A stretch of 57,126 nucleotides of DNA from Candidatus Thorarchaeota archaeon (GTDB taxonomy: Archaea > Asgardarchaeota > Thorarchaeia > Thorarchaeales > Thorarchaeaceae), in assembly GCA_046758445.1 (NCBI GenBank), contig JBHIAE010000018.1:1-57126 (forward strand), given 5' to 3'. The notes under the pieces are model-generated. The model was not told the origin of the DNA. It ran no database searches and saw nothing but the letters and a program-made list of their open reading frames with translations. This document shows positions 128 through 43,372 of the stretch, piece by piece. Both the position numbers and the translations under genes were made by a program. Within the stretch, counting starts at the first letter, position 1, and the number at the start of each line of letters is the position of its first letter.

Positions 128-1231
128 ATGAAAACCATGAAGCTGCCTGCAGCTCTCATAATTCTGGGGTTGCTATGGATTTTTGCAGTAGCAAATGTTA
201 ACGTGGTTGCTCAGGACAATTCGCTAAGTGCAATTACGACATCAGCCACCATAACTCTGGATGGTGAAGACTCTGAAGCCGCGTGGGGTGATGCTGATTC
301 ACTATCCTTGTTAGATGTTGAAGGTAGCGGAATTGACGTTACTCTCAAGGCGCTTCATGATGATAACTACCTGTATATGTATGCGACATGGACCGACTCC
401 ACCGAATCCAATACAAGACACGGGTGGTCATATGATGGTGTAAATTGGACAAACATCGGCGGTAACGAGGACCGAATGAACTTTGCGTGGAGTATCGGTG
501 GAGCTGAGATTGCTTGCGGCCACGATCCAGCAGGTGATGACACTACTGTGTTGTTCGACGTGTGGCACTGGAAGGCATCACGGACTGGTCCAGCAGGCTG
601 GGCGGACGACAAGTACTGGGATGGCACCGGGCGCCACGCGGACACTAAGACAGCAGGTGGCTATTTTGATAACTCCGTCGTTGCACAGGAAGGAGGGAAT
701 GGCACGGCCATTACTACAGCACTCGGCAACAGTTCCGACGTAACAGCGTTCAGCAATGAGGATAGACCTTTCTGGGACGCCAACGGTGATCCGATCTCAT
801 GGAGTGGTGGTGTCAATTCGACACCTCTGACAGATTTCATCCCTGGCTACAAGACAGTATTGCCCGCAGGCAGTCGTGGAGATGTTCACACAGGGTCCAG
901 ACATGATGGTTCGGCATGGCATGTTGAGTACAGGCGTGTTTTGGCCACCGGCAACGATGATGACATCGACTTTGCAGTTGAGTCCACCTATACATTCTAT
1001 CTATCGCTCCATGACAACGCAGGTGGCATGGATCACTTCAGATATGGGGGGTTCACTCCCACAGCAATTCAGCTTTCTATTGTTGCTGGGACTACAACTG
1101 CAACACCGCCTCCCACCACAACGCCCCCACCCCCCTCAATCTTTGATAACACCTTTGTCCTGATTGGGATCATTCTGGCTATCCTTGGTATAGCAATAGG
1201 ATTTGCTAGGACTCTGAATAGAAGCTCGTGA
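128..1231 (+). CDS. Secreted, C-terminally anchored DOMON/ethylbenzene-dehydrogenase-gamma-like heme-binding protein
   Basis: N-terminal signal peptide; motifs ITLDG...W, YLYMYATWTD, EDR...W, DVWHWKASRT, WHVEYRRVL typical of this family; Pro/Thr linker and C-terminal TM helix; GGAGG RBS upstream. Confidence 0.7.
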   Translation: MKTMKLPAALIILGLLWIFAVANVNVVAQDNSLSAITTSATITLDGEDSEAAWGDADSLSLLDVEGSGIDVTLKALHDDNYLYMYATWTDSTESNTRHGWSYDGVNWTNIGGNEDRMNFAWSIGGAEIACGHDPAGDDTTVLFDVWHWKASRTGPAGWADDKYWDGTGRHADTKTAGGYFDNSVVAQEGGNGTAITTALGNSSDVTAFSNEDRPFWDANGDPISWSGGVNSTPLTDFIPGYKTVLPAGSRGDVHTGSRHDGSAWHVEYRRVLATGNDDDIDFAVESTYTFYLSLHDNAGGMDHFRYGGFTPTAIQLSIVAGTTTATPPPTTTPPPPSIFDNTFVLIGIILAILGIAIGFARTLNRSS

Positions 1232-1689
1232 AGTGAGAGTCTGTCAATACTCAACGGAACTATGAATCGTTTGCTAAGCAGAGGCCATTCGCCTAAAGTG
1301 GGATTTGAATCCTTAGCTTCCGGTTCTTCCGGAGTCACTACGTATCATAAAAGCAAGATTGAACATAGGTGTTGATATAACAAGCCATCCTGTGCATTCA
1401 GACACCTGGAAGCTTCAGGAGGAGTTCAATTGAGATAATAGCTGCTTCTCTGACAAAAAGCTTTTTGACTACCACCATAGCTATGACATCTAGTCAAGTC
1501 ATTAGTGATAATCTAGTTTCTATCGAGTCAATTCACCGGGGATGTTCTGGTAGCCTACTTTCTCCTTCTTAGTTTCACGAATTGAAACACCCTAGTCACC
1601 TTTGGAGAAGAATAACTCACACCCAAAGCGTAGGAGAGCTTTTTTTTGGCTAATCGAATTTATGCTGTTCGAATTCCATCATATGTCTT

Positions 1690-2904
1690 TCACAGATCCA
1701 TCAATTCAATGAACAAATCCTCAATGTTGGCGATTTTGATGTCTGCGCCTCGCTTTCTTATCGCATCTGCGAAGTTGAGTTTACAGAAGACACATGCTGA
1801 AACAATCGTTGTTGCCCCTGTACTTATCGCATCTTCCAATCTTCGTTCTGCCACATTCAAGGCGCTATCTCCAAAGCCGGCCTTGAAACCACCTCCAGCT
1901 CCGCAGCATTTTGAATCATGGCCGTGACGATTCATCTCAACTAGCTCTAGCTCTGGGATGCTCCTCAGTATCTCACGAGGCGCTTCGAAGACTCCTACAT
2001 GTCGGCCCAGATGACAGGGATCGTGATATGTCACTTTCTCTGGATAGCCTTTCTTCCAATTAAGCTCGCCCTCCTTTAGCTTCATTGAGAGAAATTGCAC
2101 TAAGTGAAGAGTATCGGTAGGGAGGATTCCCTCCATCTTCCGGTAGTACACGGACCAGTCCAGAGTGACGGTCCTATAGCAGCCAGCACATGAGAAGATC
2201 AGATTCTCAATCCCTCTCCCTTCAATTGCCTCAATATTGTGACGGATTATTTCTGCCACATCGAGAGTTCCGATACGTTTTTTCTTGCTAGAGTCAGACG
2301 TTTCATAAACTGGCTTCTTGACTTGGCCCGTTCGAATTAAGGGGCTGCAGCAACAGAATTCTTCGGGACCAAGTATCTGCGGTTCTATGTCGAAATAGTT
2401 GAGCATTCGAACAGTGGCGTTGGCTATCTCTGGACGTCTGTAAGATGCGGTGCAACCTACAAAGTAACCCCATTTGGAGTCGTCCGATGTTTTTGCTCCT
2501 GGCTCAACCCAGCTTCCCCGCTCCTGAGGATCTTCACCAAAGACATTGTGTTTTGCGAAGACTTGGTCACCCATTACCTCAACTCTTCCCCACGGTCCTT
2601 TCTTGATATCGACAAGTCGTTTCCGAACGCTTTCAATTATCTCAACGTAAGGAACGTTAACAGGACATCTTTCCACACATTGTTCGCATGTCGTACAAGC
2701 ATACATTGATCTGACAAAGTCCTCATCTATGGGGAGATTCTTCTCGGAATAAGATCGAAGGAGTCTGAGTCTTCCACCAGCAAACATTGCTTCAGTCTCG
2801 AACTCCTCGTAGCTAGTACATGTCCATCTGCACGTTGCACAGTTACTGCAATGAACAACTAGGTCAGGATCAATTTTGATTTTGGACCCAAGGAGAGGAG
2901 CCAT
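1690..2904 (-). CDS. HdrD/GlpC/GlcF-type Fe-S protein (2x[4Fe-4S] plus two CCG domains)
   Basis: CSNCATCRWTC and CTTCEQCVERCP ferredoxin motifs; FVGC, FCCC, CAGC, YHDPCHLGR, CCGAGGG, ACVFC. Confidence 0.9.
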   Translation of the reverse strand: MAPLLGSKIKIDPDLVVHCSNCATCRWTCTSYEEFETEAMFAGGRLRLLRSYSEKNLPIDEDFVRSMYACTTCEQCVERCPVNVPYVEIIESVRKRLVDIKKGPWGRVEVMGDQVFAKHNVFGEDPQERGSWVEPGAKTSDDSKWGYFVGCTASYRRPEIANATVRMLNYFDIEPQILGPEEFCCCSPLIRTGQVKKPVYETSDSSKKKRIGTLDVAEIIRHNIEAIEGRGIENLIFSCAGCYRTVTLDWSVYYRKMEGILPTDTLHLVQFLSMKLKEGELNWKKGYPEKVTYHDPCHLGRHVGVFEAPREILRSIPELELVEMNRHGHDSKCCGAGGGFKAGFGDSALNVAERRLEDAISTGATTIVSACVFCKLNFADAIRKRGADIKIANIEDLFIELMDL

Positions 2905-4395
2905 CTACAGAATCCCTCCTTGGCCTGACACAGGCACATCGCATAACGTTTCTCTACCCCTCAACTTGATCTGAAGCCTTCTGAATAGTCCATTCATATT
3001 AAACATGAGATTCATGCGGGTGTATGAGATATTAGTGTGAGTGAGCTTATCTGGATTCATAATTCCGTTAGGATCCCACTTTTGGCGCAACTCAATAAAT
3101 CGATGATAATGTTCAGGTTGGTATCGTTTCAGGTAAATCGAGTTTTGCAGCCCGTAGGTGTACAGCTCTGCGCCTTCTTGATATGCAGTCTTGACTAAGT
3201 GATGGAGCATTGTTTTCCCTGCCATGAAATGCATCCAATGGCGATGGTCCGAAGGAGCGAAAACACACATCCGCGTCATGTTCCTGTTTCCATATACTAA
3301 ATAGAAGCAGGAGCAGATGCTGTAGTTCTCTGCAATCTTGTTCATTTTCCTAACTACTGGTCCAATCCTTGTGAGTGGGATCCAAAAGTTCTGCATTGAC
3401 AAGGTCGGCACCTCGAGCTTAAGCTTCATTTCTACTTTGAACCGTTCTTCCCAACCTTTCTCGTAATATGCTGGTCCAAGATCTTGGCCACCAGCCTCCT
3501 CCAAGATTTGTCTGCCTGTGTCCAGCGCTTCCTTCAAAACCGTCACACTGCCATCATAGACCGCTAATACAAATACCGACCCTCTCGAATGCGGTGGTAG
3601 TCCTCCCTGAATCCTCCATTCATACTCGAGGTCGGTCATCCGTAGATAGACAGGCTTGTTTCGTGCCTTGCTCAGCTTGTCCACAGCACGTATTGCCGCG
3701 TCCAGATCATAGAATGCGTACATGAAGCCACCCACCGTTTCTGGAAGGGAACGAACTCTCATTTTGATTTGAGTGATAATGCCAGTTATTCCTGCAGTAC
3801 CCTCGAATTCCTCTATGTCCTCACCATCAATCGTTTCAATCCTGCCATCTGGCCGCACTACTTCAGCTTCGAGGATATTCTCAGAAAAAGAACCATATTT
3901 CGGAGTACCGATTCCCGACTTTCCTCCAGTTCCCAACCACCCTGCAATTGTGGACGCGACTGCACTTTGAGGTGCCACGCGTAACGCAAGGCCATGTTTA
4001 CTGAGCTCAAGGTCAACCACTTCGAATACAGCTCCTGCCTGCACTCGTACCCACTCCTGCTCACTGTTGATTTCGAGAATCTTATTCATTCGTTTGGTAT
4101 CGACTACCAATCCTCCTCGTGTTGGACTTGCTGAACCATAATAGCACGTTCCTCCGCCCCTTGCGACGACCGGAATCTGATGTGCTGAGGCGTATTCTAG
4201 GAGTGACGAAACATCCTCAGCTTGAATTGGCCAGGCCACATAGTCAGCAAGCCATTTTTTCTTCCATCGGTAGTGATAGTAGGGTGTTCCCGTAGTGTCA
4301 CCACTAGCAGATAGACGCTCTGCTAGGCTCGAGCTGATCCAGGGAAGCTCGTCCAATTTGCGGATATCAAATGCCTCAACTTGAACCTCGTTCAT
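2905..4395 (-). CDS. FAD-binding oxidoreductase, GlcD/D-lactate dehydrogenase fold (HYRWK subtype)
   Basis: PVVARGGGT, P.S...STIAGW, G..GIIT motifs; C-terminal WDPNGIMNPDK. Confidence 0.85.
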   Translation of the reverse strand: MNEVQVEAFDIRKLDELPWISSSLAERLSASGDTTGTPYYHYRWKKKWLADYVAWPIQAEDVSSLLEYASAHQIPVVARGGGTCYYGSASPTRGGLVVDTKRMNKILEINSEQEWVRVQAGAVFEVVDLELSKHGLALRVAPQSAVASTIAGWLGTGGKSGIGTPKYGSFSENILEAEVVRPDGRIETIDGEDIEEFEGTAGITGIITQIKMRVRSLPETVGGFMYAFYDLDAAIRAVDKLSKARNKPVYLRMTDLEYEWRIQGGLPPHSRGSVFVLAVYDGSVTVLKEALDTGRQILEEAGGQDLGPAYYEKGWEERFKVEMKLKLEVPTLSMQNFWIPLTRIGPVVRKMNKIAENYSICSCFYLVYGNRNMTRMCVFAPSDHRHWMHFMAGKTMLHHLVKTAYQEGAELYTYGLQNSIYLKRYQPEHYHRFIELRQKWDPNGIMNPDKLTHTNISYTRMNLMFNMNGLFRRLQIKLRGRETLCDVPVSGQGGIL

Positions 4396-4407
4396 TTCTT
4401 GCTACCT

Positions 4408-4815
4408 CTACATTAGGAATTGAACATACCCCATCACGAATGCCATTGTCCAGCAGACAAGTGCCACAAGTCCGGGAATCTTGGTCCTGATTCCACTTAT
4501 TCCAGTCAAGAAAGCACCAATCCCAAACCCGTAACCGATTATTCCGAGTACTATGTGGATCATATGGAAGAGGTCAACCGGAGGAGCGGAAAGAACAGTG
4601 TTCGTCATAGGGATAATCACTACTATATTGATTGTCGTCAGCAACAAGGAAAGGCCAGCACACACACCGTGCGCGAAAGTGTATTTCTCCTTTGAAATGT
4701 AGTATAGTAGAGTCCCAATTCCGAGAAGAACTATTGCAGGGAGTCCGAGAATAATCGTCATATGCCAATTCATGCCGGCCTGCAATGGCACCAGCGATAT
4801 TTGTCTTTGGACCAT
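4408..4815 (-). CDS. Four-TM His-rich membrane protein, putative cytochrome b
   Basis: Start trimmed to ATG 4815 (MVQRQ). Four hydrophobic helices with WH, HG and HMIH histidines; aligns with the C-terminal domain of 21369..22607. Confidence 0.6.
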   Translation of the reverse strand: MVQRQISLVPLQAGMNWHMTIILGLPAIVLLGIGTLLYYISKEKYTFAHGVCAGLSLLLTTINIVVIIPMTNTVLSAPPVDLFHMIHIVLGIIGYGFGIGAFLTGISGIRTKIPGLVALVCWTMAFVMGYVQFLM

Positions 4816-4906
4816 TATCTTCGCCTTTTGTTTCTCTTGACTAGTCTTGTTCCGAGCACAAGATTGCCTAAGTTGAATTTGCCCGGCGTGCGTCCGGACA
4901 AATCGG

Positions 4907-5052: not shown

Positions 5053-6978
5053 ATGCAGAACGACAACCGGCGGCATTCCCCGGCTCAGAAGATTGGATTT
5101 TCCCTAGTTGTCTTTTCTTTCATTATTGTTGGAGTTCTCGCGCTGGCTCCGGCAGCTTTTGCCCAACCCCCGACCAATAGGGAGTTTGTAGTGGTCGCCA
5201 GACAGTATGCGTTTGAGCCGAATTTCATCCATGTCAACTTTGGCGATAATGTAACTATTCGGCTGAGGACTGCAGATGTGGCACATGGAATGTACATTGA
5301 TGGGTATGACATAAACATCAAGCTCTTTCCTGAAAGTCCTTCGGACGAAACTGTCGTCACTTTTGTCGCGAATAGGGCGGGAGTGTTCAGGTACAGGTGC
5401 TCGATTACTTGTGGGGGTTTTCATCCTTTCATGATGGGAAAGTTGATCGTTGAGCCTGGTTACGAGTTTCCCATCTCCATAGCACTAGCATGGGGATTGT
5501 CAATTGCCGCCATTGGACTCTATTGGATGAGTCGCTTTGACCCTCTAGAGGAACCAAAGCCATCCGAGAAGATCAACCTACTTAGCTTCAGATTGATTAA
5601 GAAGCTACTTAGGAGTCGAATCGTCCAGTTCACCATATTGTTGGCCACATTAGCTATCTTTGTCTGGGTAATAATGTCTGGCCTCGTTGGGACTCCTGTT
5701 GGAAATAGGAACTTCTCAGTAGTTATGGTATGGATCATATGGTGGGCGGCTTTGATGATATTCATGGTGCCCATTGGAGGCAGATTATGGTGCATGATTT
5801 GCCCACTGCCCGCATTGGGAGAGTGGTCCCAGCGAGGATCCCTTACCACAAAGAGCGAGAAGCCGCATGGCCTGATGAAGAGATGGCCAAAGAAACTGGA
5901 TAATATCTGGCTTCAGAATGCAGGTTTTCTCTGCCTTACAATATTCATTGGTGTGATGATTGTAAGTTCGCTAGCCACTGCTATATTGATGCTCTTGCTT
6001 ATCGTCCTCCCCTTAGGGCTCTCGTTTGTGTTCAAGGACCGAGTGTTCTGTCGCTACCTTTGCCCGGTATCAGGGTTCATTGGACTTTATGCCAATGCCG
6101 GCATGCTAGAGCTCAGAGTAGAAGACCGAACGGTCTGCAGAAAACATATAGAGAGTAAGGATTGTATCCAAGGCAATGAACATGGCTATGGGTGTCCATG
6201 GTTCGAGTTTCCCCAGAACCTTGATAGGAATGCCTACTGTGGACTTTGCCTTGAATGCATAAAGACATGTCCCAAAGACAACATCACCCTGAACTTCCGA
6301 CTTGGCGGAGAAGATCTGCAAATCGACCCTTGGGGTGGTCGTAGAAAGCGCAAGCTTGACGAAGCTTGGAAAGCCTTCATAATGCTCACGTTGTCATTCC
6401 TCTATGGGCTTGTATTCATGGGGCCATACGCCTTCCTCAAGGACATGGCACGGATGGCTTCTTTGAATCAGTGGTTATCTTTCATCGCCTTGGTGTGGAC
6501 TTTAGCGCTTATTCTCGTGCCGGGAACCTTTGTTGGGTTCGTTGCAATTGCCAAACGAGTGTCTGGAAACAAAGAAATCACGCTGAAGAAACTAGTCATC
6601 AATTTCTCGAATGCATTGGTTCCACTTGGGCTCCTAGCTTGGGTGGCATTTAGCGTCGCAATAGTGATGATTCAAGGATCTCTTCTTATCCCGGTAATAG
6701 CTGACCCCTTTGGGTGGGGCTGGGATATTTTCGCTTTGGTTGGCAACCCATTTGGGCTAGGAATTGATTATCCATGGCAACCCTACTTCACGACATTCAT
6801 TCCGTTCATCCAGATAGCCATCTTATTGGGCGGTCTGTATCTTGGAGTGAGAGCTGTTCACCAGATAGCATTGAGAGTGTTCGAGGACAGGACGCAGGCT
6901 GTCAAGGCGTCGATCCCTATCATCATATACATGACGCTATTCACAATGTTGCTACTGTGGCTTTGGGCAGGTGGGTGA
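5053..6978 (+). CDS. CuA-type cupredoxin domain fused to NosR/NapH/YccM-like polytopic membrane Fe-S domain
   Basis: DVAHG...CSITCGGFHPFM (H...CxxxCxxxHxxM CuA pattern); GRLWCMICP and FCRYLCP motifs; CGLCLECIKTCP ferredoxin motif; many TM helices. Confidence 0.8.
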   Translation: MQNDNRRHSPAQKIGFSLVVFSFIIVGVLALAPAAFAQPPTNREFVVVARQYAFEPNFIHVNFGDNVTIRLRTADVAHGMYIDGYDINIKLFPESPSDETVVTFVANRAGVFRYRCSITCGGFHPFMMGKLIVEPGYEFPISIALAWGLSIAAIGLYWMSRFDPLEEPKPSEKINLLSFRLIKKLLRSRIVQFTILLATLAIFVWVIMSGLVGTPVGNRNFSVVMVWIIWWAALMIFMVPIGGRLWCMICPLPALGEWSQRGSLTTKSEKPHGLMKRWPKKLDNIWLQNAGFLCLTIFIGVMIVSSLATAILMLLLIVLPLGLSFVFKDRVFCRYLCPVSGFIGLYANAGMLELRVEDRTVCRKHIESKDCIQGNEHGYGCPWFEFPQNLDRNAYCGLCLECIKTCPKDNITLNFRLGGEDLQIDPWGGRRKRKLDEAWKAFIMLTLSFLYGLVFMGPYAFLKDMARMASLNQWLSFIALVWTLALILVPGTFVGFVAIAKRVSGNKEITLKKLVINFSNALVPLGLLAWVAFSVAIVMIQGSLLIPVIADPFGWGWDIFALVGNPFGLGIDYPWQPYFTTFIPFIQIAILLGGLYLGVRAVHQIALRVFEDRTQAVKASIPIIIYMTLFTMLLLWLWAGG

Positions 6979-6983
6979 TCAAT

Positions 6984-7355
6984 ATGAAGAAATGTGAGCT
7001 ATTTGCGATTGTCTTAGTCTTCGGGGTCGTCATCATAATGCCCAATGGTATATTGTGGGTGGACCAGAATCTCTTCAAGACTCCAGACACGATCTTTGTA
7101 CACTTAAGACAGTACGAATTTGATCCTGCCACTATCGAAGTCAGCCTGGGTGATACCGTGGAGCTTCTTGTTACGAGTGATGATGTCGTGCATGGATTCT
7201 CGATCCCTGATTACGGAATAAATGAACTAATCTATCCAGGCCATCCGGTGTGGATTTCTTTCGTGGCAGACACAGCAGGTACGTTCGAAATGGCGTGTTC
7301 AATCTGGTGCGGCGTTGGACATTATGACATGACCGGCGAGCTTGTCGTCACATGA
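6984..7355 (+). CDS. Membrane-anchored CuA cupredoxin (cytochrome oxidase subunit II C-terminal-like domain)
   Basis: Start trimmed to ATG 6984 after a GGTGA RBS; N-terminal TM helix; DVVHG...CSIWCGVGHYDM. Confidence 0.8.
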   Translation: MKKCELFAIVLVFGVVIIMPNGILWVDQNLFKTPDTIFVHLRQYEFDPATIEVSLGDTVELLVTSDDVVHGFSIPDYGINELIYPGHPVWISFVADTAGTFEMACSIWCGVGHYDMTGELVVT

Positions 7356-9630: not shown

Positions 9631-9639
9631 GTAAATCAC

Positions 9640-10815: not shown

Positions 10816-10830
10816 CGATTCCTCTCTCCT

Positions 10831-15110: not shown

Positions 15111-15154
15111 TTCGAGCCCTCCAAGAATTACCCTCTAAAGTCCATTGAGAATGG

Positions 15155-18635: not shown

Positions 18636-18650
18636 CTTCTTCGACACGTA

Positions 18651-23282: not shown

Positions 23283-23285
23283 CCT

Positions 23286-32990: not shown

Positions 32991-33307
32991 TCCCACTCTC
33001 CTGGTATCTTGCAGTAGGTTTCATCCTAATTGGACTAGGTGCCTACGGAATGATGGTCAAGAGGAACCTCATCAGGATTCTCATCGGAGCAGAGATCATG
33101 GCTAACGGAGTCATGATTGCCCTGGTTGCACTAGGTCTCTATGGCCCTGTATTTGCACTAACTGGACAGGGCTTGGTCATTCTCGTGATATCAGTTGCAG
33201 CCGCACACACTGCATTGGCTATGGTCTTGATGCTTGTTTACAACAGACGTTACGGCACTGTCGATTTCGGAACGCCAATCTCGCAGGAGGAGAAGATCAA
33301 TGTCTAG
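32987..33307 (+). CDS. nuoK: Complex I-like subunit K
   Basis: G..G...KRNLI..LI..EIM.NG, GQ......VAAA; three TM helices. Confidence 0.9.
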   Translation: MIPLSWYLAVGFILIGLGAYGMMVKRNLIRILIGAEIMANGVMIALVALGLYGPVFALTGQGLVILVISVAAAHTALAMVLMLVYNRRYGTVDFGTPISQEEKINV

Positions 33308-36108: not shown

Positions 36109-36112
36109 AGAA

Positions 36113-36544
36113 ATGGGAATTCTCAGAAACTTAGGCGACATGTTCCAAATCCTGAGGCACGTCTTCCGTCAGGTCTTCACTAGGCCCTTCACGTACTTCT
36201 ACCCGTTCGAGGACCGTGAGTACCCGGAAACGACCAGGGGCAGACACATACACATTCGCAAGAACTGTACAGCGTGCTCACAATGCGTAAGAGCATGTCC
36301 TGTAGTGGCGATCAGAATTGACAAGGAGGACAAGATGTACGAGAAGGATGCAGCGCTGTACTTTGATTACACTCGATGCATCTTTTGTGGCTTATGTGTC
36401 CAATCATGCAGGTTTGACGCACTGTTCCACACAGCGGTGGTTGATATCAGTGAGGGCGAGAGGGAGGACCTACTGTACGGTCCGGATAAGATAGAAACCC
36501 TCGACAGGGACCCACTGAAGTGGCGTGGGAGGGAGTTCAGGTAA
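36113..36544 (+). CDS. nuoI: Complex I-like subunit I (2x[4Fe-4S])
   Basis: T..YP.E.......RG, CTACSQCVRACP, RCIFCGLCVQSC; start ATG 36113. Confidence 0.9.
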   Translation: MGILRNLGDMFQILRHVFRQVFTRPFTYFYPFEDREYPETTRGRHIHIRKNCTACSQCVRACPVVAIRIDKEDKMYEKDAALYFDYTRCIFCGLCVQSCRFDALFHTAVVDISEGEREDLLYGPDKIETLDRDPLKWRGREFR

Positions 36545-38058
36545 TGCAGGCAATCGAGTTCCCATTCATGGCCATATCACTGGCCGTCCTTTTTCTTGGA
36601 GGGCTGTTGATCTACCTGTTTCGCGGAAGATTAGTGGAATCGTCAGGAAGGGTTGCCGTAGGCATCTCATTCGCGTCGCTTGTCCTGATGATTCCACCGT
36701 TCTATCGCGTACTTGTGGAACCGATTGGTGCTGTATTCGAGGGTGCCACGTGGTCGGAAGTGCTGGGAGAGTTCGGACTCTACATGGATGGAATAGCTTT
36801 CCCAATCACTTTCGCCGTCGTTGTACTAGGTTTCCTCTCAGTCGTTTACGCTGTGGGTTACACTGAGCACTCGGAGAACAAGCCGACGTTCTTTGCAAAC
36901 ACGCTGTTCTTCATAATGGGTATGCAATGGGTAACTCTCGCCACGAATCTACTCGAGTTCTTCATTGCATGGGAATTGATGCTGGTTCCGTCATACTTCT
37001 TAATTCTCTTCTGGGGTCTTCCTGAAACGAAAAAGAGGACCGCCATGAAGTTCTGGTTGTACACACAGTCAGGGGCCGTGTGCATCCTCATCGGATTTGG
37101 ACTGCTGTACTTCTTCACTGGCTCTTTTGAGCTCTACACAATCATCTCGTTACTGCCCGCATTCATTAGCCAACTAGATATGCTGAAACTGATCTTCATT
37201 CTGCTGGCCGCGGGATTCCTAGTCAAGATGGCCGTCTTCCCAATTCACTGGTGGCTTCCTCCTGTCCACGCTGAGGCACCAACACCAATCTCAGTGCTGC
37301 TATCTGGAGCTATGATTGAGACCGGCGCTTACGCTCTGGTCCGGTTCGGAATCGTCACCCTGGGCCCTGCAGCTTTGAACTTGTCATTCTTCGTTGGTCT
37401 TCTCGGTGTCATTACCATGTTCTATGGTGGACTAATGGCGCTTGTTCAGAAGGACATCAAGAGACTCCTTGCTTATTCAAGTGTGAGCCAGATGGGCTAC
37501 GTACTCTTTGCATTAGGAATGATAACCTCTTACGGAGTTGCAGGTGGACTGTTCCATCTCATCAATCACGCATTCTCAAAGGGCCTCTTGTTCATGACGG
37601 CAGGAGCTGTGATCCATCAGACTCATCTCCGCGATGTTGACCTCATGGGAGGTCTCTCGAACAAGATGCCCATAACCGCCTTTGCTGCCGCGATAGGCGC
37701 AATGAGCATAGCGGCAAGTCCACCGCTGTCGGGCTTCGCAAGTGAGTGGATGATGTTCCTTGGAGGATTTGATGCGGTGTTCCTTGGAACTCCTGGAATG
37801 CGACCCGAGTTCCTTATCCTCTCAATCCTCGCTGTGTCCTCTTCAATTGTAAGCGCGGGATACATGCTTCGCTATATCTGGAAGGTCTTCCTTGGGCCTC
37901 ATCCGGACGCGCTTGAAGAAGTGAAGGAGAGCTCCCGATGGATGACTGTCCCAATGATCATTCTCGGGGTTCTGATTGTGCTCTTCGGAATACTCCCAGG
38001 ACTGGCACTTGATGTGATCATACCTGGTGTACAAGGAATTCCATCGATTATCCCATGA
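36544..38058 (+). CDS. nuoM: Antiporter-like subunit, additional NuoM/MrpD-like copy
   Basis: FFIAWELM..P.YF, A.KF.LYT, VK...P.H.WLP..H.EAP, Q.DIKRLLAYSSVSQMG, NHAFSKG, GF.SE; start ATG 36544. Confidence 0.8.
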   Translation: MQAIEFPFMAISLAVLFLGGLLIYLFRGRLVESSGRVAVGISFASLVLMIPPFYRVLVEPIGAVFEGATWSEVLGEFGLYMDGIAFPITFAVVVLGFLSVVYAVGYTEHSENKPTFFANTLFFIMGMQWVTLATNLLEFFIAWELMLVPSYFLILFWGLPETKKRTAMKFWLYTQSGAVCILIGFGLLYFFTGSFELYTIISLLPAFISQLDMLKLIFILLAAGFLVKMAVFPIHWWLPPVHAEAPTPISVLLSGAMIETGAYALVRFGIVTLGPAALNLSFFVGLLGVITMFYGGLMALVQKDIKRLLAYSSVSQMGYVLFALGMITSYGVAGGLFHLINHAFSKGLLFMTAGAVIHQTHLRDVDLMGGLSNKMPITAFAAAIGAMSIAASPPLSGFASEWMMFLGGFDAVFLGTPGMRPEFLILSILAVSSSIVSAGYMLRYIWKVFLGPHPDALEEVKESSRWMTVPMIILGVLIVLFGILPGLALDVIIPGVQGIPSIIP

Positions 38059-38068
38059 GGTGAATTAG

Positions 38069-40318
38069 ATGCTGCTTGGACTACCATATTGGCTTATCCT
38101 CGTAATTCCACTCGGCGGTTCACTGCTCGTTCCATTAGCTGGGCGCTTCAGCGAGAGGATGAGAGATTGGACTCCTGCAATCCTCATGGGCATAACTATG
38201 GTTCTGAGCTGGTCTCTTCTTCTGGAGATTGGGAATCCAGAAACCCAGACGAGCTGGACTTGGATCGCAGTACTTGGACTCAACTTTGAGATCCTTCTTG
38301 ACCCGTTGTCAGTCGTTATGGCCGTCCTCGCGAGTACACTGTGTTTCCTCATCTATGTGTACAGTACTGAGTACATGGCTCACGAGGGTGACCGTGACAG
38401 GTTTTTCTTCCTGATGTTAGCGTTCGGGGGCGGAATGCTCACACTTGTTCTCAGCAACAACCTGCTCATTGCGTTCATCGGTTGGGAGATAATGGGCTTC
38501 TGCTCCTACGGGCTCATCGGCTTTTGGAGCGATAGGAGGAACCCGATGGAGGTTGAGCTTGACCCGATTGTTTACAAGAACCCCCTTCTTCAGTTCGAAA
38601 CTGAGGGCCAGTACAACACTCATTGCGGGACCAAGGCCTTCGTTGTGACAAGAATCGGTGATGCATTCATGCTCGGGGGCATTCTAATTCTCTTTGTCTT
38701 CACTGGCACGTTCTCTTTCACAGAGATGGCCACCAATGCACAGGGATGGTGGCAGGTCATGGCCAGCATCGGATTGCTGGTGCCGACTTTCTTGCTGATT
38801 TTTCTCGGTGCAATTGGGAAGTCGGGTCAGGCACCACTGCAGGTTTGGCTCCCTGAAGCAATGGCTGGTCCTACGTCGGTTTCAGCGCTTATTCATGCAG
38901 CAACAATGGTGAAGGCCGGCGTTTACATTACTGCAAGGTTTCTTGTCACTATGGTTGAAGCCGCAGGAAGCAATGGCAATAGTGGAGGTCATGTCTATTC
39001 TACACTCCAAGCGGTCGGCTTTGAGGCTGCCCTTTCGTTCTTCATAGTGGTAGCAGTCATCGGAGGTATCACGGCCCTTATGACAGCAACGATGGGAATG
39101 GTTTCGAACGAGCTTAAGCAGATTCTCGCATTCTCGACTCTGTCCCAGCTTGGCTACATGATGCTGGCATTGGGCACTGGTGGGATTCTTGAGGCCAATA
39201 ATCTTCACTTCGATTATGCTTACCTGAGCAGCATACTTCATGTGGTTTCACACGGCGCATTCAAGGCACTCCTGTTCTTGGCGTCAGGTGGTGTGATACA
39301 TGCTTTACACACGAAGTATATCTCCAAAATGGGAGGACTTCGAAAACACATGCGAAAGACGTTCACAATCATGTGGATAGGCATTCTAGCTCTAGCCGGG
39401 ATTCCGCCGTTTTCAGGATTCTGGTCCAAGGATTCCATCATCGAATACACCTACGAGCTGGCCGTTCATTGGACCAATCCACTCGGATGGATTCTGTTCG
39501 TGTTTGCTGTTCTGGCCGCAGCATGCACCATCTTCTACAGCCTTCGATTGATGGGTATCACCTTCTATGGACCACCGAAGGAAACGCACGATTCCCACGA
39601 TAGTCAAGAATCACATGAAGAAGAGTCTGAAGAGCATGTGGAATCAGAGGAGGAGCATCATGACGATCACCATTCTGACCCCCACGACCCGGGTCCAGCT
39701 ATGATGGTTCCTCTCTACCTCTTGGCCGCATTCACAATCATAGCATTCGTGGTGTTTCCGTTCATCCAGAACATCGTGCTAGAATCCAGTCAAAGCTGGG
39801 CTGAGATCATGAATGAGATGATCATGGTCAAGCTAACTATGCCTGGAGTAGTACCATTCGCCATCACTCTGTTTGCCCTCGCAATTGGAGGTATCCCAGG
39901 CTACATAATCTACATCAGGAACGCAGACCGGAAGAACACAATCATCCCTGAGACTGGCTTCAGACGTCGAATCCACAACTTCCTCAAGCACCGGTGGTAC
40001 ATCAACGAGTTCTACTACTGGGTCCTGAACAAGTTCCTCAATGCCGCTGAGTGGTACAGAGTCAGGGTTGACAACAACATCATAGATGGAATCGACTTCA
40101 AGTCTGCAGATTCGGCGAAAGCCATATCTGGGAGGGCTCGTTGGTTTGACGACAACGTGGTAGACGGGTTTGCGGAAGGTATCTCCACACAGAGTGTCGC
40201 AGGATCTGAGAGAGGTCAGCGCGCTCAGACTGGAGTGGTGAATGACTACGTTGGAGTCATAATGTTCGGAATTGGGCTGCTGGTGATTATTGCCCTAATC
40301 ACAATGGGGGTGATATAG
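38069..40318 (+). CDS. nuoL: Complex I-like subunit L
   Basis: GWEIMGFCSYGLIGFW, KAF..TRIGD, GKSGQ.PL..WLP.AM.GPT.VSALIHAATMV, LAFSTLSQLGYM, HGAFKALLFL, GFWSKD, QTG.V..Y. Confidence 0.92.
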   Translation: MLLGLPYWLILVIPLGGSLLVPLAGRFSERMRDWTPAILMGITMVLSWSLLLEIGNPETQTSWTWIAVLGLNFEILLDPLSVVMAVLASTLCFLIYVYSTEYMAHEGDRDRFFFLMLAFGGGMLTLVLSNNLLIAFIGWEIMGFCSYGLIGFWSDRRNPMEVELDPIVYKNPLLQFETEGQYNTHCGTKAFVVTRIGDAFMLGGILILFVFTGTFSFTEMATNAQGWWQVMASIGLLVPTFLLIFLGAIGKSGQAPLQVWLPEAMAGPTSVSALIHAATMVKAGVYITARFLVTMVEAAGSNGNSGGHVYSTLQAVGFEAALSFFIVVAVIGGITALMTATMGMVSNELKQILAFSTLSQLGYMMLALGTGGILEANNLHFDYAYLSSILHVVSHGAFKALLFLASGGVIHALHTKYISKMGGLRKHMRKTFTIMWIGILALAGIPPFSGFWSKDSIIEYTYELAVHWTNPLGWILFVFAVLAAACTIFYSLRLMGITFYGPPKETHDSHDSQESHEEESEEHVESEEEHHDDHHSDPHDPGPAMMVPLYLLAAFTIIAFVVFPFIQNIVLESSQSWAEIMNEMIMVKLTMPGVVPFAITLFALAIGGIPGYIIYIRNADRKNTIIPETGFRRRIHNFLKHRWYINEFYYWVLNKFLNAAEWYRVRVDNNIIDGIDFKSADSAKAISGRARWFDDNVVDGFAEGISTQSVAGSERGQRAQTGVVNDYVGVIMFGIGLLVIIALITMGVI

Positions 40319-40319
40319 A

Positions 40320-41864
40320 ATGCAGTTCAATTTTATCGATAACTTGATCGCAATGCTGCCAATGGAATACATACTGCCCGTTATGCTGTTTCTACCAGTA
40401 TTGGGAGCATTCATCGCCTACCCCTTAGGCAAGAGGGGTGCGCGAGCACTCACTCTGTTGATCACGGCATTCGAGCTAGTTCTTGCGATTCTCTTGGCTT
40501 TTGCAATCGACACTTCGACCGATGCAATGTCATACTCTTGGAGATTTGTGATGGGCACAATCCCCTTTGGAGGTGCATCGGCGAACCTGCAGATACTCCT
40601 CGGAGTCGATGGGATATCCGTGGCCATGATATTCCTATCGAACTTGGTTGTCTTTGTAGCCGCTCTTAACTCGAACCACATCCACAAGTCTGAAGGGCTC
40701 TACTATGCCTTCTTCCTTCTCCAGGCAACAGGTCTGCTGGGGGTCTTTATGTCACTAGACTTGATCAGCTTCTTCATTTTCTGGGAGCTTGTCCTGATTC
40801 CCTTGTTCTTCATAATAGGTCGCTGGGGCGAGGAAGGCTGCGAACACGCGGCTGTGAAGTTCTTCATCTATACTCACCTAGGCTCTGCAGTGATGCTTGT
40901 AAGCTTCATGGCACTCTACTTCCTTGGACCTGGTACGTTTGAGATGGTTGCCCTTCGCGAAGTTGGACTCCCTGTGGATGTTCAGATAGGATTTGCTTTG
41001 GCTGTCTTCATGGGAGCAGGAGTTAAGCTGCCAGTCTTCCCGCTTCACAACTGGCTACCTTGGGCTCACGTGAAAGCACCAACGCCTGGCTCGGTCATTC
41101 TTGCGGGAATCCTGTTGAAGATGGGCGGGTACGGGTTCATCAGGCTAGGCCTATGGATGGTGCCTGAGGGCTTCATGCATCTCAGTATCCCACTTGCAGT
41201 GCTGGCTGTCTTTACTTGTATCTACGCAGCGTTTGTTGCACTCGCACAAACGGACCTCAAGAGCATGGTGGCTTATACTTCGATCAACCACATGGCATGG
41301 GTACTGCTGGGAGTTGCTATCGGCGCGTTTGCTTTCCAGGCCGGCGTCACCCCTGACATCAGAGCGGCCGCAAGTCTTGCAGTTCAGGGAGCTGTCTTCA
41401 TGATGGTGTCACATGGGGTGATAATATCAGTGATGTTCATCATGGCCGGTCAGCTTACCTACGCGGCTGGTTCAAGGGAGATTCCTGAAGTCCAGGGTCT
41501 CATGGCAAAGGCCCCAAGATTGTCAGCGGTCCTCATTTTGGCATCCTTTGCAGCCTTCGGCCTTCCCGGTTTCAGCGGTTTCATTGCAGAAGCTTTGGTC
41601 CTCTTTGGGTCTGTCAGTATCTACATCTGGTCAGGATTGATAGCGTTCGGGATCTTTGTCACGGTCGGTTATCTTCTATGGACACTAAACCGAATCGTAT
41701 TCAGTGACCCGGACCCTGAGAAAGAGGTTGTAGATGCTCCTTGGAGTGACCTCATCGCGCCCATACTGATGATGGTCCCTGTGCTTGTGCTTGGATTCTG
41801 GCCTGACCTGATCCTCAATATGGTGACTCCGGTGGTCAACTTCATGCTTGGAGGTGTCCCATAG
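40320..41864 (+). CDS. nuoM: Complex I-like subunit M
   Basis: GVDGIS, FFIFWEL.LIP.F, A.KFFIYT, VKLP.FPLH.WLP.AH..AP..GS.ILAG.LLKMG.YG, D.K..VAY.S..HM, MVSHG, GLPG.SGF.AE. Confidence 0.92.
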   Translation: MQFNFIDNLIAMLPMEYILPVMLFLPVLGAFIAYPLGKRGARALTLLITAFELVLAILLAFAIDTSTDAMSYSWRFVMGTIPFGGASANLQILLGVDGISVAMIFLSNLVVFVAALNSNHIHKSEGLYYAFFLLQATGLLGVFMSLDLISFFIFWELVLIPLFFIIGRWGEEGCEHAAVKFFIYTHLGSAVMLVSFMALYFLGPGTFEMVALREVGLPVDVQIGFALAVFMGAGVKLPVFPLHNWLPWAHVKAPTPGSVILAGILLKMGGYGFIRLGLWMVPEGFMHLSIPLAVLAVFTCIYAAFVALAQTDLKSMVAYTSINHMAWVLLGVAIGAFAFQAGVTPDIRAAASLAVQGAVFMMVSHGVIISVMFIMAGQLTYAAGSREIPEVQGLMAKAPRLSAVLILASFAAFGLPGFSGFIAEALVLFGSVSIYIWSGLIAFGIFVTVGYLLWTLNRIVFSDPDPEKEVVDAPWSDLIAPILMMVPVLVLGFWPDLILNMVTPVVNFMLGGVP

Positions 41865-43372
41865 TGATGCAGTTCGAAGTATTCACAGACTTCCTTAGGT
41901 CGCTCTTTGCTCCGTTTGTTGACCTAGTTGTCACCTACATACCTTCAGAGTGGATGGCCTCACTTCCCGCCTTGACTCTGATTGCATTTGCATTCTTAGC
42001 TCTCATCGTCGGTCTGCGCCGAAGTCCTCTGGTGTTGAGTTTCATTGGAGTGTTCCTAGCAGGTGTGGAGATGGTACTTCTCGAGTCCTCAACCTATGGG
42101 TCCTCTTTTGGAGGACTGTTCGTACGGGACGCATTTGGTGACTTCTTCATCTGGATTATTCTCATCGTAGCTGTGTTTGTCCTGCTCTCATCTACAACAT
42201 TCGGCGGCAACAGGGGAACATACAACTTCCTACTACTGATATCATTTGCAGGCGCAATCTGGGTCGTCATGGCTACTGACCTTGTTGCGCTCTTTGTCGC
42301 CTGGGAGTTGATGAGCACACCGACATACGTACTCGCGGCTCTCGGACCACATAGAGGAGCGATTGATGGTGCCACCAAGTACTTTGTAATGGGGCTTGTG
42401 TCGACGACGCTGATGGTCTTCGGCATAGCCATTGTCTATGGTGCCACGGGAGTGACCAACATGGCACTTGTCGCTGATGCCATAAGCGCAGTCTGGACCA
42501 CTGTGCCAACCATTGCCGCTGAGGCTTATGCAATCCTTCTTGCGATGGTGCTGTTTCTCATTTCTTTTGGGTTTAAAGCGGCCACATTTCCAGGATGGAT
42601 GTGGGTACCCGACACATACTCCACAGCCGATGGTAGTGTGACCGGGTACTTGGCCGGCGCGACGAAGAAGACTGCTGTGAGTGCTCTCTTGCGGATACTG
42701 GTTGTGGCATTCGTAGTTGCTCGCCTAGAGTGGATGCCGCTCATTGTAGCTGTGGCGATTCTGACGATGATCATCGGAAACACGATGGCACTGGCCCAAC
42801 GGAACATAATGCGCATGTTCGCATATTCGTCAATCATGGTCATGGGAATACTCTTCGTAGGGATGTCAGTGGGAACGCAGTATGGAATCGCGGCAGCCAT
42901 GTTCACAGCATTTGCACATGCACTGATCAAGACAGGGGCCTTCATCCTGACTTGGGCAATGGCTGTTCGCTTGGGTAAGGAGATAACCTATGACGACTTG
43001 GCGGGTCTCAGCAGACGCTCTCCGGGCGCAGCTGCGCTACTTGCCATCTTGGTGTTCGCGCTAGCAGGTGCACCATTCACAGCAGGTTTCTGGTTCAAGT
43101 GGCTGCTGATTCCTGCCAGTGCAGTTGAGATTGGACTCTGGTGGTTGGCACTGATAGCGGTCTTGAACTCTGTGTTCGCTCTGGGTTACTATCTCAGAGT
43201 CCTCAGGTATTGCTACTTCATGGAACCCAATGATGATACTACGTTTCGACTTGCTCGAGCACCGATGCTTGCTGTCGCACTAGCTGTGATTGGCACGATA
43301 GCACTGGGAATCATGCCAAGTCTTGTGCTAGACTATGCTTTCGATGCTGCTGCCTTGTTCGCGGTGCCGTAG
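41864..43372 (+). CDS. nuoN: Complex I-like subunit N
   Basis: FVAWELMS.P.Y.L, A.KYF..G, GFK....P...WVPD.Y, GN..AL.Q.N..R..AYSSI, LAG.P..AGF..K, YYLR. Confidence 0.9.
   Translation: MMQFEVFTDFLRSLFAPFVDLVVTYIPSEWMASLPALTLIAFAFLALIVGLRRSPLVLSFIGVFLAGVEMVLLESSTYGSSFGGLFVRDAFGDFFIWIILIVAVFVLLSSTTFGGNRGTYNFLLLISFAGAIWVVMATDLVALFVAWELMSTPTYVLAALGPHRGAIDGATKYFVMGLVSTTLMVFGIAIVYGATGVTNMALVADAISAVWTTVPTIAAEAYAILLAMVLFLISFGFKAATFPGWMWVPDTYSTADGSVTGYLAGATKKTAVSALLRILVVAFVVARLEWMPLIVAVAILTMIIGNTMALAQRNIMRMFAYSSIMVMGILFVGMSVGTQYGIAAAMFTAFAHALIKTGAFILTWAMAVRLGKEITYDDLAGLSRRSPGAAALLAILVFALAGAPFTAGFWFKWLLIPASAVEIGLWWLALIAVLNSVFALGYYLRVLRYCYFMEPNDDTTFRLARAPMLAVALAVIGTIALGIMPSLVLDYAFDAAALFAVP

Follow-up and report, generated by a model that had tools for sequence, protein, structure and literature searches.

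A conserved Thorarchaeial gene cluster that probably encodes a two-layer membrane electron-transport system with putative transmembrane conduits

A 43-kb gene cluster (positions 128 to 43,372 of the 57,126-nt stretch analysed here, hereafter the window) of a Thorarchaeota genome probably encodes a conserved two-layer membrane electron-transport system of Thorarchaeia, with putative transmembrane conduits. The core layer, present in most of the family, would be a headless, complex I-like ion pump with a VAO/GlcD-fold flavoprotein fused to its NuoB; its neighbours are the gene for an HdrD-like CCG protein and those that would make the tail of a prenylated lipid carrier (polyprenyl synthase, geranylgeranyl reductase family [GGR] and MenA-like). 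The add-on layer, found in genera g1, g5, g7 and g23, comprises cytochrome c maturation (Ccm), a surface multihaem cytochrome, a family of Ig-fold CxxCH proteins, a four-helix membrane domain with four histidines (4-His domain) and four further flavoprotein/CCG pairs, to which this genome adds CuA cupredoxins with a SCO1/SenC-family gene and a DOMON protein. Gene content, motifs, conserved order and co-occurrence with Ccm were observed directly, and the gene anatomy fits the chain of cytoplasmic flavoenzymes, ion pump and outward haem and copper carriers that the original prediction had proposed.

Organization and conservation of the cluster

Gene content was called with Pfam and NCBIfam profile scans, and the features of the cluster are as follows.

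128-1231 (+): EB_dh/DOMON-type protein, exported and C-terminally anchored (Pfam; N- and C-terminal hydrophobic segments)
1690-4818 (-): type A unit 1, with CCG1 (1690-2904), GlcD1 (2905-4395) and a 4-His four-helix membrane protein (4408-4818; domain 4408-4791)
5053-6978 (+): CuA cupredoxin in fusion with a polytopic, NapH/NosR-like [4Fe-4S] membrane protein
6984-7355 (+): second CuA cupredoxin, membrane-anchored
7897-11934 (-): type B unit 1, with GlcD2 (7897-9639, carrying a C-terminal TM hairpin), CCG2 (9640-10815), a 4-TM protein (10831-11343) and cytC1, a signal peptide plus CxxCH protein, putatively a monohaem Ig-fold cytochrome (11344-11934)
12190-16531 (-): type B unit 2, with GlcD3 (12190-13863, with C-terminal TMs) and CCG3 (13911-15110), preceded by an amine-oxidase-type flavoprotein gene of the CrtI/HpnE family (15155-16531; Pfam/NCBIfam)
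16876-18414 (-): MenA-like UbiA prenyltransferase (UbiA, 118.6 bits) with a PNPOx-like N-terminal domain (PNPOx_N)
18651-22607 (-): type A unit 2, with CCG4 (18651-19922), GlcD4 (19897-21534) and cytC2, a signal peptide plus CxxCH protein (21369-22607; 4-His domain 21369-21794)
22797-23282 (-): PNPOx-like protein
23286-24548 (-): DUF7530 5-TM plus PNPOx-like protein
24655-25935 (-): CCG5, in the same block (22797-28314) as cytC3
26002-28314 (-): cytC3, a 770-aa surface protein with signal peptide and CxxCH, a putative N-terminal c-haem Ig domain, PKD-like repeats and a TM anchor
28571-30511 (+): GlcD-fold flavoprotein fused to NuoB, 646 aa, NuoB being the C-terminal domain
30508-31059 (+) and 31191-31553 (-): two small conserved membrane proteins
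31894-43372 (+): complex I-like operon nuoA, J, K, C, D, H, I, M, L, M, N

The suspected Asgard host is borne out by the relatives that carry the same flavoprotein-NuoB fusion, which are named as Thorarchaeota MAGs. The 43 kb makes up 1.3% of the genome (92.7% complete), and it holds both 4-His domains, both CuA domains, the sole NuoB, NuoD and MenA-like genes, three of the four CxxCH-family genes, 5 of ~11 GlcD-like genes and 5 of ~13 CCG genes. Gene linkage in relatives, a check that had been proposed, was found, with the order conserved across four genera. G015 and G011, which belong to the same genus, kept the full gene order, as did G020 and G022, which belong to other genera. In G019 and G024 the retained set was limited to nuo, the fusion gene, CCG5 and UbiA, followed in G019 by the polyprenyl synthase and GGR genes. 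Since the genome's redox genes are concentrated here and the gene order recurs in relatives, the clustering is not due to chance. The "island" of the original prediction thus stands as a conserved chromosomal cluster, but not as foreign DNA, which we rejected on GC content (49.3%, compared to 49.5% genome-wide). The cluster runs on past the left end of the window.

Complex I-like enzyme and flavoprotein-NuoB fusion

All eleven core subunits of the predicted complex I-like set scored over the Pfam/NCBIfam cut-offs. The operon encodes an 11(+1)-subunit enzyme with four antiporter-like subunits and no nuoEFG; neighbouring genes overlap or directly adjoin at their starts and stops, and the operon was kept in all six relatives examined. 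NuoEFG were absent from both the window and the syntenic loci of the six relatives. The fusion protein matched FAD_binding_4 (132 bits) and Oxidored_q6 (83 bits) of Pfam in a single frame, and its NuoB part, the only NuoB of the genome by tblastn, exceeded the cut-offs of the NCBIfam NuoB models with the N2 cysteines present. Full-length fusions were found in genera g1, g4, g7, g8 and g9, and CCG5 adjoined the fusion gene in every relative examined. Alignment of NuoD to the 49-kDa subunits of complex I showed that the histidine of the beta1-beta2 loop is kept (GPQHVSAHG) and that the quinone-site tyrosine of RxDY is replaced by leucine (ERLCLLE). Among solved structures, the closest relative of NuoD was by a narrow margin MbsL, from the sulfane reductase of P. 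furiosus (6u8y).

A headless 11-subunit complex I-like enzyme has been reported from Desulfitobacterium (PMC11238625). This enzyme, cyanobacterial NDH-1 and the Fpo or Fpo-like enzymes of methanogens share with the window the NuoA-D and H-N set without NuoEFG, with ferredoxin as a likely donor. The window differs in having a NuoB fused to a flavoprotein, four antiporter-like subunits, two extra small conserved membrane proteins and a NuoD that lacks the quinone tyrosine and is as close to MbsL as to complex I. HdrD/GlcD pairs and Fpo-like plus HdrD systems have been proposed for Methanomethylicia, Bathyarchaeia and Methanomassiliicoccales (PMC6421429), and these also set a GlcD-fold flavoprotein beside an HdrD-like CCG protein and tie it to a complex I-like enzyme. 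In the window, by contrast, the link is covalent through the NuoB fusion, the pairs are five-fold, four of them are tied to putative c-type cytochromes, and there is no methanogenesis context. The complex I-like enzyme may pass electrons from ferredoxin or the fused flavin module to a lipid carrier, coupled to ion translocation.

The chain had been called quinone-linked, which held in part. The genome contains a polyprenyl synthase, a GGR gene, a UbiE/MenG-family methyltransferase and the MenA-like gene, but no Mqn/Men head-group pathway was found, and the NuoD substitution points the same way: MqnA/D and MqnC were not found in a genome search, and the MenB and MenD models retrieved only paralogues below cut-off. 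The MenA assignment itself needs a qualifier, as MenA models were the best matches of the UbiA protein but only TIGR00751 was over its cut-off (104.1 versus 102.15 bits), the remaining MenA equivalog models being well under theirs (e.g., 171.9 versus 264). The PNPOx-UbiA fusion was seen in this genome only; in the same-genus relatives, UbiA stands alone and shares 52-58% identity.

Flavoproteins and CCG proteins

FAD_binding_4/FAD-oxidase_C domains (Pfam) were present in all five of the predicted FAD oxidoreductases, and the amine-oxidase-type protein is an extra flavoprotein with 71-77% identity in four relatives. The five resemble GlcDEF glycolate oxidase and Dld-II/LctD-type enzymes in these domains and in their GlcF-like CCG partners. 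However, their GlcD-model scores (132-147 bits) were far under the cut-off of 567.9, and a motif search found HxGDGNxH, the metal-site motif, in none of them. When GlcD1 was aligned to LctD (7qh2_C), the metal-site His, His and Glu (HxGDGNxH ... EHG) were all replaced. Lacking this metal site of D-2-hydroxyacid dehydrogenases, the flavoproteins are not canonical GlcD or D-lactate dehydrogenases.

Each of the five predicted CCG Fe-S proteins indeed combines CCG with two [4Fe-4S] sites, with two CCG stretches and Fer4_8/17 matches per protein (Pfam). Both CX31-39CCX35-36CXXC motifs were found in CCG2 to CCG5, and one strict match was found in CCG1. The top NCBIfam models were TfrB, GlpC, TmcB, HmcF and DsrK, the best being the thiol:fumarate reductase subunit TfrB; the TmcB, HmcF, DsrK and HdrB/C models matched below their cut-offs. 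Flavoproteins and CCG proteins pair by subfamily: a type A flavoprotein goes with a type A CCG protein, a type B with a type B, and the NuoB fusion has CCG5 as its partner.

Ig-fold CxxCH proteins and cytochrome c maturation

The three surface CxxCH proteins carry a signal peptide followed by CxxCH, as predicted: an N-terminal hydrophobic segment leads to an AxA site, and the CxxCH follows 6-10 residues on. They appear to form a new family of exported proteins that share an Ig fold and a single putative haem site, C-x(2-6)-CH. In 16 of 16 sequences, the CH was invariant and at a fixed distance past the AxA site, and the first Cys was nearly invariant. Among the matches listed, 88 of 149 distant relatives, a few of which are partial-length or repeat-only matches, had Cx2-6CH in the first 90 residues, and some others carried one-Cys or CxCH forms. 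The domain folds as an Ig/S-layer-like sandwich of generic type, its best matches include no known cytochrome, and the alignment showed no invariant distal Met or His. We infer haem binding by these proteins.

The genome does carry the cytochrome c maturation genes that the original prediction had suggested looking for (ccmC, E, F, F, B, A, i.e., CcmA, B, C, E and F with a second F). The contig that carries them (C25) joins C104 via a 55-bp overlap, and a SCO1/SenC-family gene adjoins ccmF2. In G011 and G015, the homologous ccm block abuts UbiA and CCG1 and lies inside the cluster. Across 151 Asgard genomes, the CxxCH family was found in 14 and Ccm in 25, including all 14 with the CxxCH family. 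The two sets were identical in the family of this genome (10 genomes including this one, versus 0 of 17) and in the distant family f9 (4 genomes versus 0 of 21), and CxxCH-family genes are often adjacent to ccmF. The genome encodes one anchored 7-9-haem cytochrome; apart from it, no substrates other than the CxxCH family are visible for this Ccm system and its two CcmF.

Four-part units and the 4-His membrane domain

A four-part unit recurs in the cluster: a putative c-haem domain of Ig fold is combined with a 4-His membrane domain, a flavoprotein and a CCG protein. The intergenic gaps are 12 and 0 nt in type A unit 1 and 0, 15 and 0 nt in type B unit 1, and the order of both was kept in G015, G011, G020 and G022. 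In type A unit 2, cytC2 is a fusion of the Ig-fold c-haem domain to the 4-His domain. The same fusion recurs in family f9 in the order ccm, fusion gene, GlcD-A and CCG-A, and this proximity to ccm in another, distant family of Asgard archaea points to a Tmc/Hmc-like transmembrane conduit. Family f9 has the cytochrome-flavoenzyme unit but no MenA-like gene, so a quinone would not be obligatory for the unit. A literature search found no paper describing either the four-part unit or the flavoprotein-NuoB fusion.

The two membrane domains had been called cytochrome-b-like. They are indeed paralogous four-helix domains with four invariant histidines, of which three are predicted to lie on the outer side of the membrane and the fourth on the inner side, but Pfam, Foldseek and VIA revealed no relation to a known cytochrome b. 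One of nine members matched Cytochrom_B561 (Pfam) weakly (E of 0.14), the best Foldseek match was COX3, also weak (E of 0.25), and VIA gave Z of <=12, the range of generic helical bundles. We infer a cofactor in this domain.

The units would follow the logic of Tmc, Hmc and DsrMKJOP in sulfate reducers and of HdrDE in Methanosarcina, with a c-type cytochrome facing outward, a small membrane subunit of haem type and, on the cytoplasmic side, a CCG/[4Fe-4S] protein. The putative cytochrome of the window, however, is a one-haem Ig-fold protein rather than a c3-type multihaem protein; the 4-His domain is unrelated to NarI/HdrE-type cytochrome b by sequence or fold search; and a VAO-fold flavoprotein is added as a constant partner. 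Multihaem-cytochrome extracellular electron transfer is known from Methanoperedens/ANME and Methanosarcina acetivorans (PMC10542353; bioRxiv 10.1101/590380), where archaeal Ccm and surface-anchored c-type cytochromes are backed by a lipid carrier and by a pump of complex I-like or Rnf type. These elements would have counterparts in this genome, its 7-9-haem cytochrome among them. The window differs from these systems in its Asgard lineage, its mostly monohaem Ig-fold putative cytochromes and its cytoplasmic flavoprotein/CCG partners.

Each four-part unit may function as a Tmc/Hmc/HdrDE-like transmembrane complex that moves electrons between a cytoplasmic flavin/Fe-S reaction and an outward-facing haem. 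Two features count against this reading: single haems would be short wires for long-range transfer, and the 4-His domain has a lone conserved histidine predicted on the cytoplasmic side. A further, tentative proposal is that at least two distant Asgard families possess a quinone-free, self-contained conduit of c-haem Ig domain, 4-His bundle, VAO flavoenzyme and CCG protein, which would discharge or take up electrons at the surface and which in Thorarchaeia would be stacked on a flavoprotein-fused pump with its own lipid carrier.

Direction of electron flow and alternative explanations

A net flow outward to an extracellular acceptor or a partner cell is somewhat favoured over inward flow. The same apparatus might run inward, although we consider this unlikely: surface haem or copper would take electrons from a mineral, shuttle or partner cell, the flavoprotein/CCG units would reduce a cytoplasmic disulfide or 2-oxoacid-type substrate, and the reversed complex I-like enzyme would supply reduced ferredoxin to the Wood-Ljungdahl pathway. 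The anatomy has no built-in direction, HdrB/HdrD-type enzymes catalyse disulfide reduction at their CCG domains (TfrB being the best match here), and no terminal reductase was found in the genome, nor was a terminal acceptor enzyme identified, two molybdopterin enzymes encoded elsewhere being left out. However, nothing singles out a reductive substrate, and Thorarchaeia are usually portrayed as organoheterotrophs with surplus reductant (for descriptions of Asgard archaea, see PMC9723677).

It is improbable that the cluster serves cytoplasm-facing energy conservation only, as a ferredoxin:disulfide-type oxidoreductase in the Fpo-like/HdrD(/GlcD) style with the CxxCH, CuA and DOMON proteins as neighbours of separate role. 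Heterodisulfide reductases of HdrD/GlcD type have been proposed in other archaea (PMC6421429), and the nuo/fusion/CCG5/UbiA core occurs without any cytochromes in G019 and G024 of the relatives examined and in 17 of 27 family genomes. Nevertheless, the four extra flavoprotein/CCG pairs are restricted to genomes with Ccm and the cytochrome family, and a c-haem domain is covalently joined to the membrane domain heading a flavoprotein/CCG operon, in the distant family as well.

Slightly less probable still is that the CxxCH proteins are Ig-fold surface or adhesion proteins in which Cys-Cys-His forms a metal site or disulfide, so that no haem wire would reach the surface. The generic sandwich fold, the missing invariant distal ligand and the variable Cys spacing, down to one Cys in some relatives, would agree with this. 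However, haem c is known from other organisms at CX3-5CH and one-Cys sites, the CH does not vary and keeps its fixed distance, every sampled genome with the family also has Ccm, with the genes often beside ccmF, and Ccm with two CcmF would otherwise be left with one multihaem protein as its sole visible substrate. A lipid or cofactor biosynthetic cluster with alkyl-DHAP-synthase-like flavoproteins is very improbable: the FAD domains match alkyl-DHAP synthase (AGPS) about as well as lactate dehydrogenases, and genes for UbiA, GGR, polyprenyl synthase and CrtI/HpnE-like and PNPOx-like proteins are interspersed, but the AGPS similarity is confined to the FAD-binding half, and every flavoprotein is paired with a CCG electron-transfer protein and tied to membrane, NuoB or cytochrome.

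Implications for Asgard archaea

Thorarchaeia are portrayed as fermenters or acetogens. In the papers searched, respiratory chains of Asgard archaea are placed mainly in Heimdallarchaeia (bioRxiv 10.1101/2024.07.04.601786; PMC10307638), and other Asgard classes have been assigned a headless complex I with its acceptor unspecified (PMC9723677). If our main reading is true, abundant sediment archaea would gain a respiration-like or electron-exchange mode, and the cluster would offer candidates for the missing acceptor side. Syntrophy models of eukaryogenesis with electron flow between host and partner would become testable via defined genes, and, should the quinone-free conduit be true, archaeal relatives of the eukaryotic host could exchange electrons directly with minerals or partner cells. 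For biochemistry, the cluster provides three architectures not described before, in the Ig-fold family of putative monohaem proteins, in the 4-His membrane domain and in the fusion of a flavoprotein to NuoB.

Copper and DOMON proteins

Both predicted CuA domains are complete in the H...Cx3Cx3Hx2M motif, at residue 116 of 5053-6978 and residue 105 of 6984-7355, each with an upstream HG. Across 5053-7355, Pfam matched Fer4_5, Cupredoxin_1 and COX2, and NCBIfam assigned NapH/MauN and the NosZ C-terminal domain, the NosZ similarity being restricted to the CuA domain. No match to haem-copper oxidase subunit I (PF00115) and neither a haem-copper nor a bd oxidase were found in the genome (completeness given above). 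Among the relatives examined, the CuA genes were present only in G015. The DOMON heme protein was verified at the family level, with 72.1 bits for EB_dh compared to a cut-off of 33.3. It had no match in the relatives' clusters examined, and a paralogue with 56% identity is encoded on contig C35 of the same genome.

Gene content and host of the cluster

The cluster was mapped with Pfam and NCBIfam scans of all long frames and a motif and hydrophobicity pass.

Genes of the cluster, with coordinates and strand
128-1231, plus strand: EB_dh/DOMON-type exported protein (Pfam/NCBIfam and motif pass)
4818-1690, minus strand: 4-TM His-rich protein, VAO/GlcD-fold flavoprotein GlcD1, CCG iron-sulfur protein CCG1
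5053-7355, plus strand: CuA cupredoxin fused to a NapH/NosR-like polytopic [4Fe-4S] protein, then a second CuA cupredoxin
11934-7897, minus strand: CxxCH protein cytC1, 4-TM protein, CCG2, GlcD2 with a C-terminal TM hairpin
22607-12190, minus strand: cytC2 fused to a His-rich 4-TM domain, GlcD4, CCG4, PNPOx-UbiA, CrtI/HpnE-family flavoprotein, CCG3, GlcD3 with C-terminal TMs
28314-22797, minus strand: cytC3 (770 aa, PKD-like repeats, TM anchor), CCG5, DUF7530-PNPOx, PNPOx
28571-31059, plus strand: GlcD-fold flavoprotein fused to NuoB, and a small membrane protein (divergent from the cytC3 run)
31191-31553, minus strand: second small membrane protein
31894-43372, plus strand: nuoA, J, K, C, D, H, I, M, L, M, N

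Many adjacent genes abut or overlap. Motif searches found the full CuA ligand motif in both cupredoxins and showed that the N2 cysteines are retained in the NuoB domain of the fusion. The redox inventory of the original prediction was correct in its contents by these scans and the motif and hydrophobicity pass, although its "cytochrome-b-like" label was not demonstrated. The region 36520-43372 encodes four antiporter-like subunits (M, L, M, N), as opposed to the usual three in complex I, and these were kept in all six relatives examined. The small 4-TM protein at 30508-31059 is translationally coupled to the NuoB fusion gene, which it adjoins throughout the family, and its C-terminal tail is an acidic Pro/Glu-rich repeat.

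The source had been taken for a probable Asgard archaeon, which is right and can be narrowed to a Thorarchaeial one from the flanking genes (a Ras-family GTPase and two TFIIB paralogues), the genomes that bear the fusion, and the downstream synteny. In a scan of one genome per species, the flavoprotein-NuoB fusion occurred in 34 loci, nearly all of them in MAGs that carry the name Candidatus Thorarchaeota, SMTZ1-45, AB_25 and OWC2 among them. Relatives share the order of the housekeeping genes 3' of nuoN, which excludes a binning contaminant as the origin of the contig. A foreign island was considered and rejected; the GC content equals the genome mean overall, with the left third ~1.6 SD lower.

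The genes after nuoN (43769-47365) encode a Ras-family small GTPase and ADP-forming acetyl-CoA synthetase-type, AAA-like and SSB-like OB-fold proteins, in an order common to several relatives. Further downstream, genes for a macro-domain protein and a NUDIX protein are divergent neighbours (51522-52774), which suggests a pair for ADP-ribose handling. The minus strand carries the two TFIIB paralogues in head-to-tail arrangement (54989-57024); of the zinc ribbon, the first frame (54989-55834) shows the end alone.

Conserved core and add-on genes

Synteny was assessed by mapping every window protein onto 20-60 kb from six relatives. The genes of the proposed island were not scattered: the whole order was kept at 40-90% protein identity in two relatives of the same genus (G015 and G011) and in two from other genera (G020 and G022). 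Two relatives from two further genera (G019 and G024) retained nuo, the fusion gene, CCG5 and UbiA, and nothing more of the cluster. The cluster therefore consists of a core common to the family and an add-on package. Compared with the six relatives, the DOMON gene is found in this genome alone, and the CuA pair is shared with G015 alone.

Outward-facing haem carriers had been proposed, and a cytochrome c maturation system is indeed present in the genome (92.7% complete), with CcmA, CcmB, CcmC, CcmE and two CcmF. On contig C25, the ccm genes neighbour a polyprenyl synthase, a geranylgeranyl-reductase-family (GGR) gene and a membrane-anchored cytochrome in which seven CxxCH sites are joined by CMHCM and Cx5CH sites. 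C25 overlaps contig C104 by 55 bp, and C104 carries the second CcmF, SCO1/SenC and, where the contig breaks off, a DDE transposase. C104 has no such overlap with the window contig, C18. It was probably an IS copy that split the assembly between the ccm block and the window. In G011 and G015, the homologous ccm block continues straight into UbiA and CCG1, and in G020 and G022 ccm genes lie within or beside the cluster; the true cluster therefore exceeds the part of it that lies in the window by at least 13 kb. On this comparison of gene order, the ccm and tail-synthesis genes would be members of the cluster. The sole match in the genome to the AhbD model was a radical-SAM/SPASM protein, at 238 bits versus a cut-off of 500.

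The transposase gene occupies C104:2683-3597 (locus L067), at one end of this short contig, on which ccmF2 and SCO1/SenC also lie. C25:32440-34659 (L066:8441-10660) encodes a 739-aa exported protein with many N-glycosylation sequons and no Pfam family, and three relatives keep it in this position, between ccmF and the gene for the multihaem cytochrome.

The exported CxxCH family

The proteins cytC1, cytC2 and cytC3 have an N-terminal domain in common. In an alignment with relatives, the CH of the CxxCH site was invariant and the first Cys nearly so, 6-10 residues past the AxA signal site. An Ig-like sandwich was modelled C-terminal to the site (AlphaFold pLDDT 82). The search for a known cytochrome fold gave only generic Ig, S-layer and macroglobulin structures as best matches, and no cytochrome. 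An exhaustive HMMER search retrieved only 284 cluster representatives in 1.84 billion proteins. Among the matches listed, 88 of 149 had Cx2-6CH within the first 90 residues, with the spacings CX2 (61), CX4 (22), CX5 (3) and CX3 (2), and several more distant listed members had one-Cys or CxCH forms. A fourth Ig-fold CxxCH member with PKD-like repeats is cut by the contig end at C66:1-967 (locus L068).

The family occurred in 14 and Ccm in 25 of the 151 sampled Asgard genomes, and all 14 family carriers had Ccm. The two genome sets were identical in the window's own family, f1 (10 genomes including this one, versus 0 of 17), and again in a distant Asgard family, f9 (4 versus 0 of 21). The relatives are not independent, so this co-occurrence is a pattern rather than a statistic, one that repeats in two separate families. 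CxxCH-family genes also frequently adjoin ccmF. The phyletic co-occurrence with Ccm is the strongest argument that the family would carry haem.

A four-helix membrane domain and a four-part unit

The free protein at 4408-4818 is homologous to the C-terminus of cytC2, and four histidines are invariant (4-His domain). From the topology imposed by the cytC2 fusion, three of them are predicted at the outer face and one at the inner face. The domain was modelled as a four-helix bundle (pLDDT 84). It had no specific relative in the PDB by fold searches or in Pfam; the structural matches were generic helical bundles, the best being cytochrome oxidase subunit III (E 0.25, Z 12). The Atlas leads Reeler, b561 and DUF420 were unsupported by Pfam scans of all alignment members.

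The 4-His domain was present in 17 of the 151 genomes, and in f1 it was confined to cytochrome- and Ccm-positive genomes. In four f9 genomes, ccmABC(E)F is followed by a fusion of a one-Cys HxxCH Ig domain with the bundle, a GlcD1-like flavoprotein and a CCG1-like protein, an order that matches the window's. A MenA-like gene was found in 0 of 25 f9 genomes at E 1e-30. The c-haem domain, bundle, flavoprotein and CCG protein may thus form one machine that needs no quinone, for which their independent recurrence in f9 is the best evidence. One f9 fusion, at L086:11419-12285 in G088, has a one-cysteine HEDCH site and adjoins a divergent ccmF.

Flavoproteins and their CCG partners

The five flavoproteins form two subfamilies, as do, in parallel, the CCG proteins: subfamily A comprises GlcD1 and GlcD4 with CCG1 and CCG4, and subfamily B comprises GlcD2, GlcD3 and the NuoB fusion with CCG2, CCG3 and CCG5. 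The placement of CCG5 in subfamily B with the NuoB fusion fits CCG5 as the partner of the fusion, whose gene it adjoins in all relatives examined. All five flavoproteins scored far below the NCBIfam GlcD cut-offs. GlcD1 lacked the His/His/Glu metal site in an alignment to LctD, and the HxGDGNxH motif was found in none of the five. The CCG proteins matched the TfrB, GlpC, TmcB, HmcF and DsrK models, all below cut-off.

A proposed lipid carrier and possible acceptors

The original prediction of a quinone-linked chain held in part. The genome has a MenA-like UbiA (scarcely above one MenA cut-off), a polyprenyl synthase and a GGR-family gene that adjoin UbiA in relatives, and, elsewhere, a UbiE/MenG-family methyltransferase; in the core-only G019, the polyprenyl synthase and GGR genes directly follow the core. 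The head-group genes did not appear above cut-off in the genome, neither MqnA/D and MqnC of the futalosine route (PF02621, TIGR03699) nor menB and menD of the classical one. NuoD keeps the loop His and has Leu in place of the complex I quinone Tyr; among solved structures, its best relative is, narrowly, MbsL of the Pyrococcus sulfane reductase. MenA-like genes occurred in 78 of the 151 Asgard genomes and in 23 of 26 family members, cytochrome-free ones included. On our reading, a prenylated carrier, which may or may not be menaquinone, would serve the core.

The UbiA of this genome (16876-18414) is fused to PNPOx and shares 52-58% identity with the unfused copies in its genus, as opposed to 60-97% for the cluster remainder. 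It is also placed differently from the relatives' gene. The PNPOx N-domain was not found on UbiA elsewhere in the genus, nor in the other Asgard lineages whose UbiA frames are long. The PNPOx-UbiA gene appears to be a replacement.

Searches of the 92.7% complete genome gave neither a haem-copper oxidase nor a cytochrome bd. Two large molybdopterin enzymes are encoded elsewhere in it.

Comparison with known systems

The papers searched treat respiratory chains in Heimdallarchaeia, a headless complex I in the remaining classes of Asgard archaea, and hypotheses on HdrD/GlcD in other archaea. In this literature, whose scope excluded the 2016 and 2018 Thorarchaeota genome papers, neither a cytochrome cluster in Thorarchaeia nor the NuoB fusion is described. 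The cluster resembles the Tmc, Hmc, DsrMKJOP and HdrDE transmembrane complexes in its logic, which is here combined with a headless complex I-like pump, but its parts differ from theirs.
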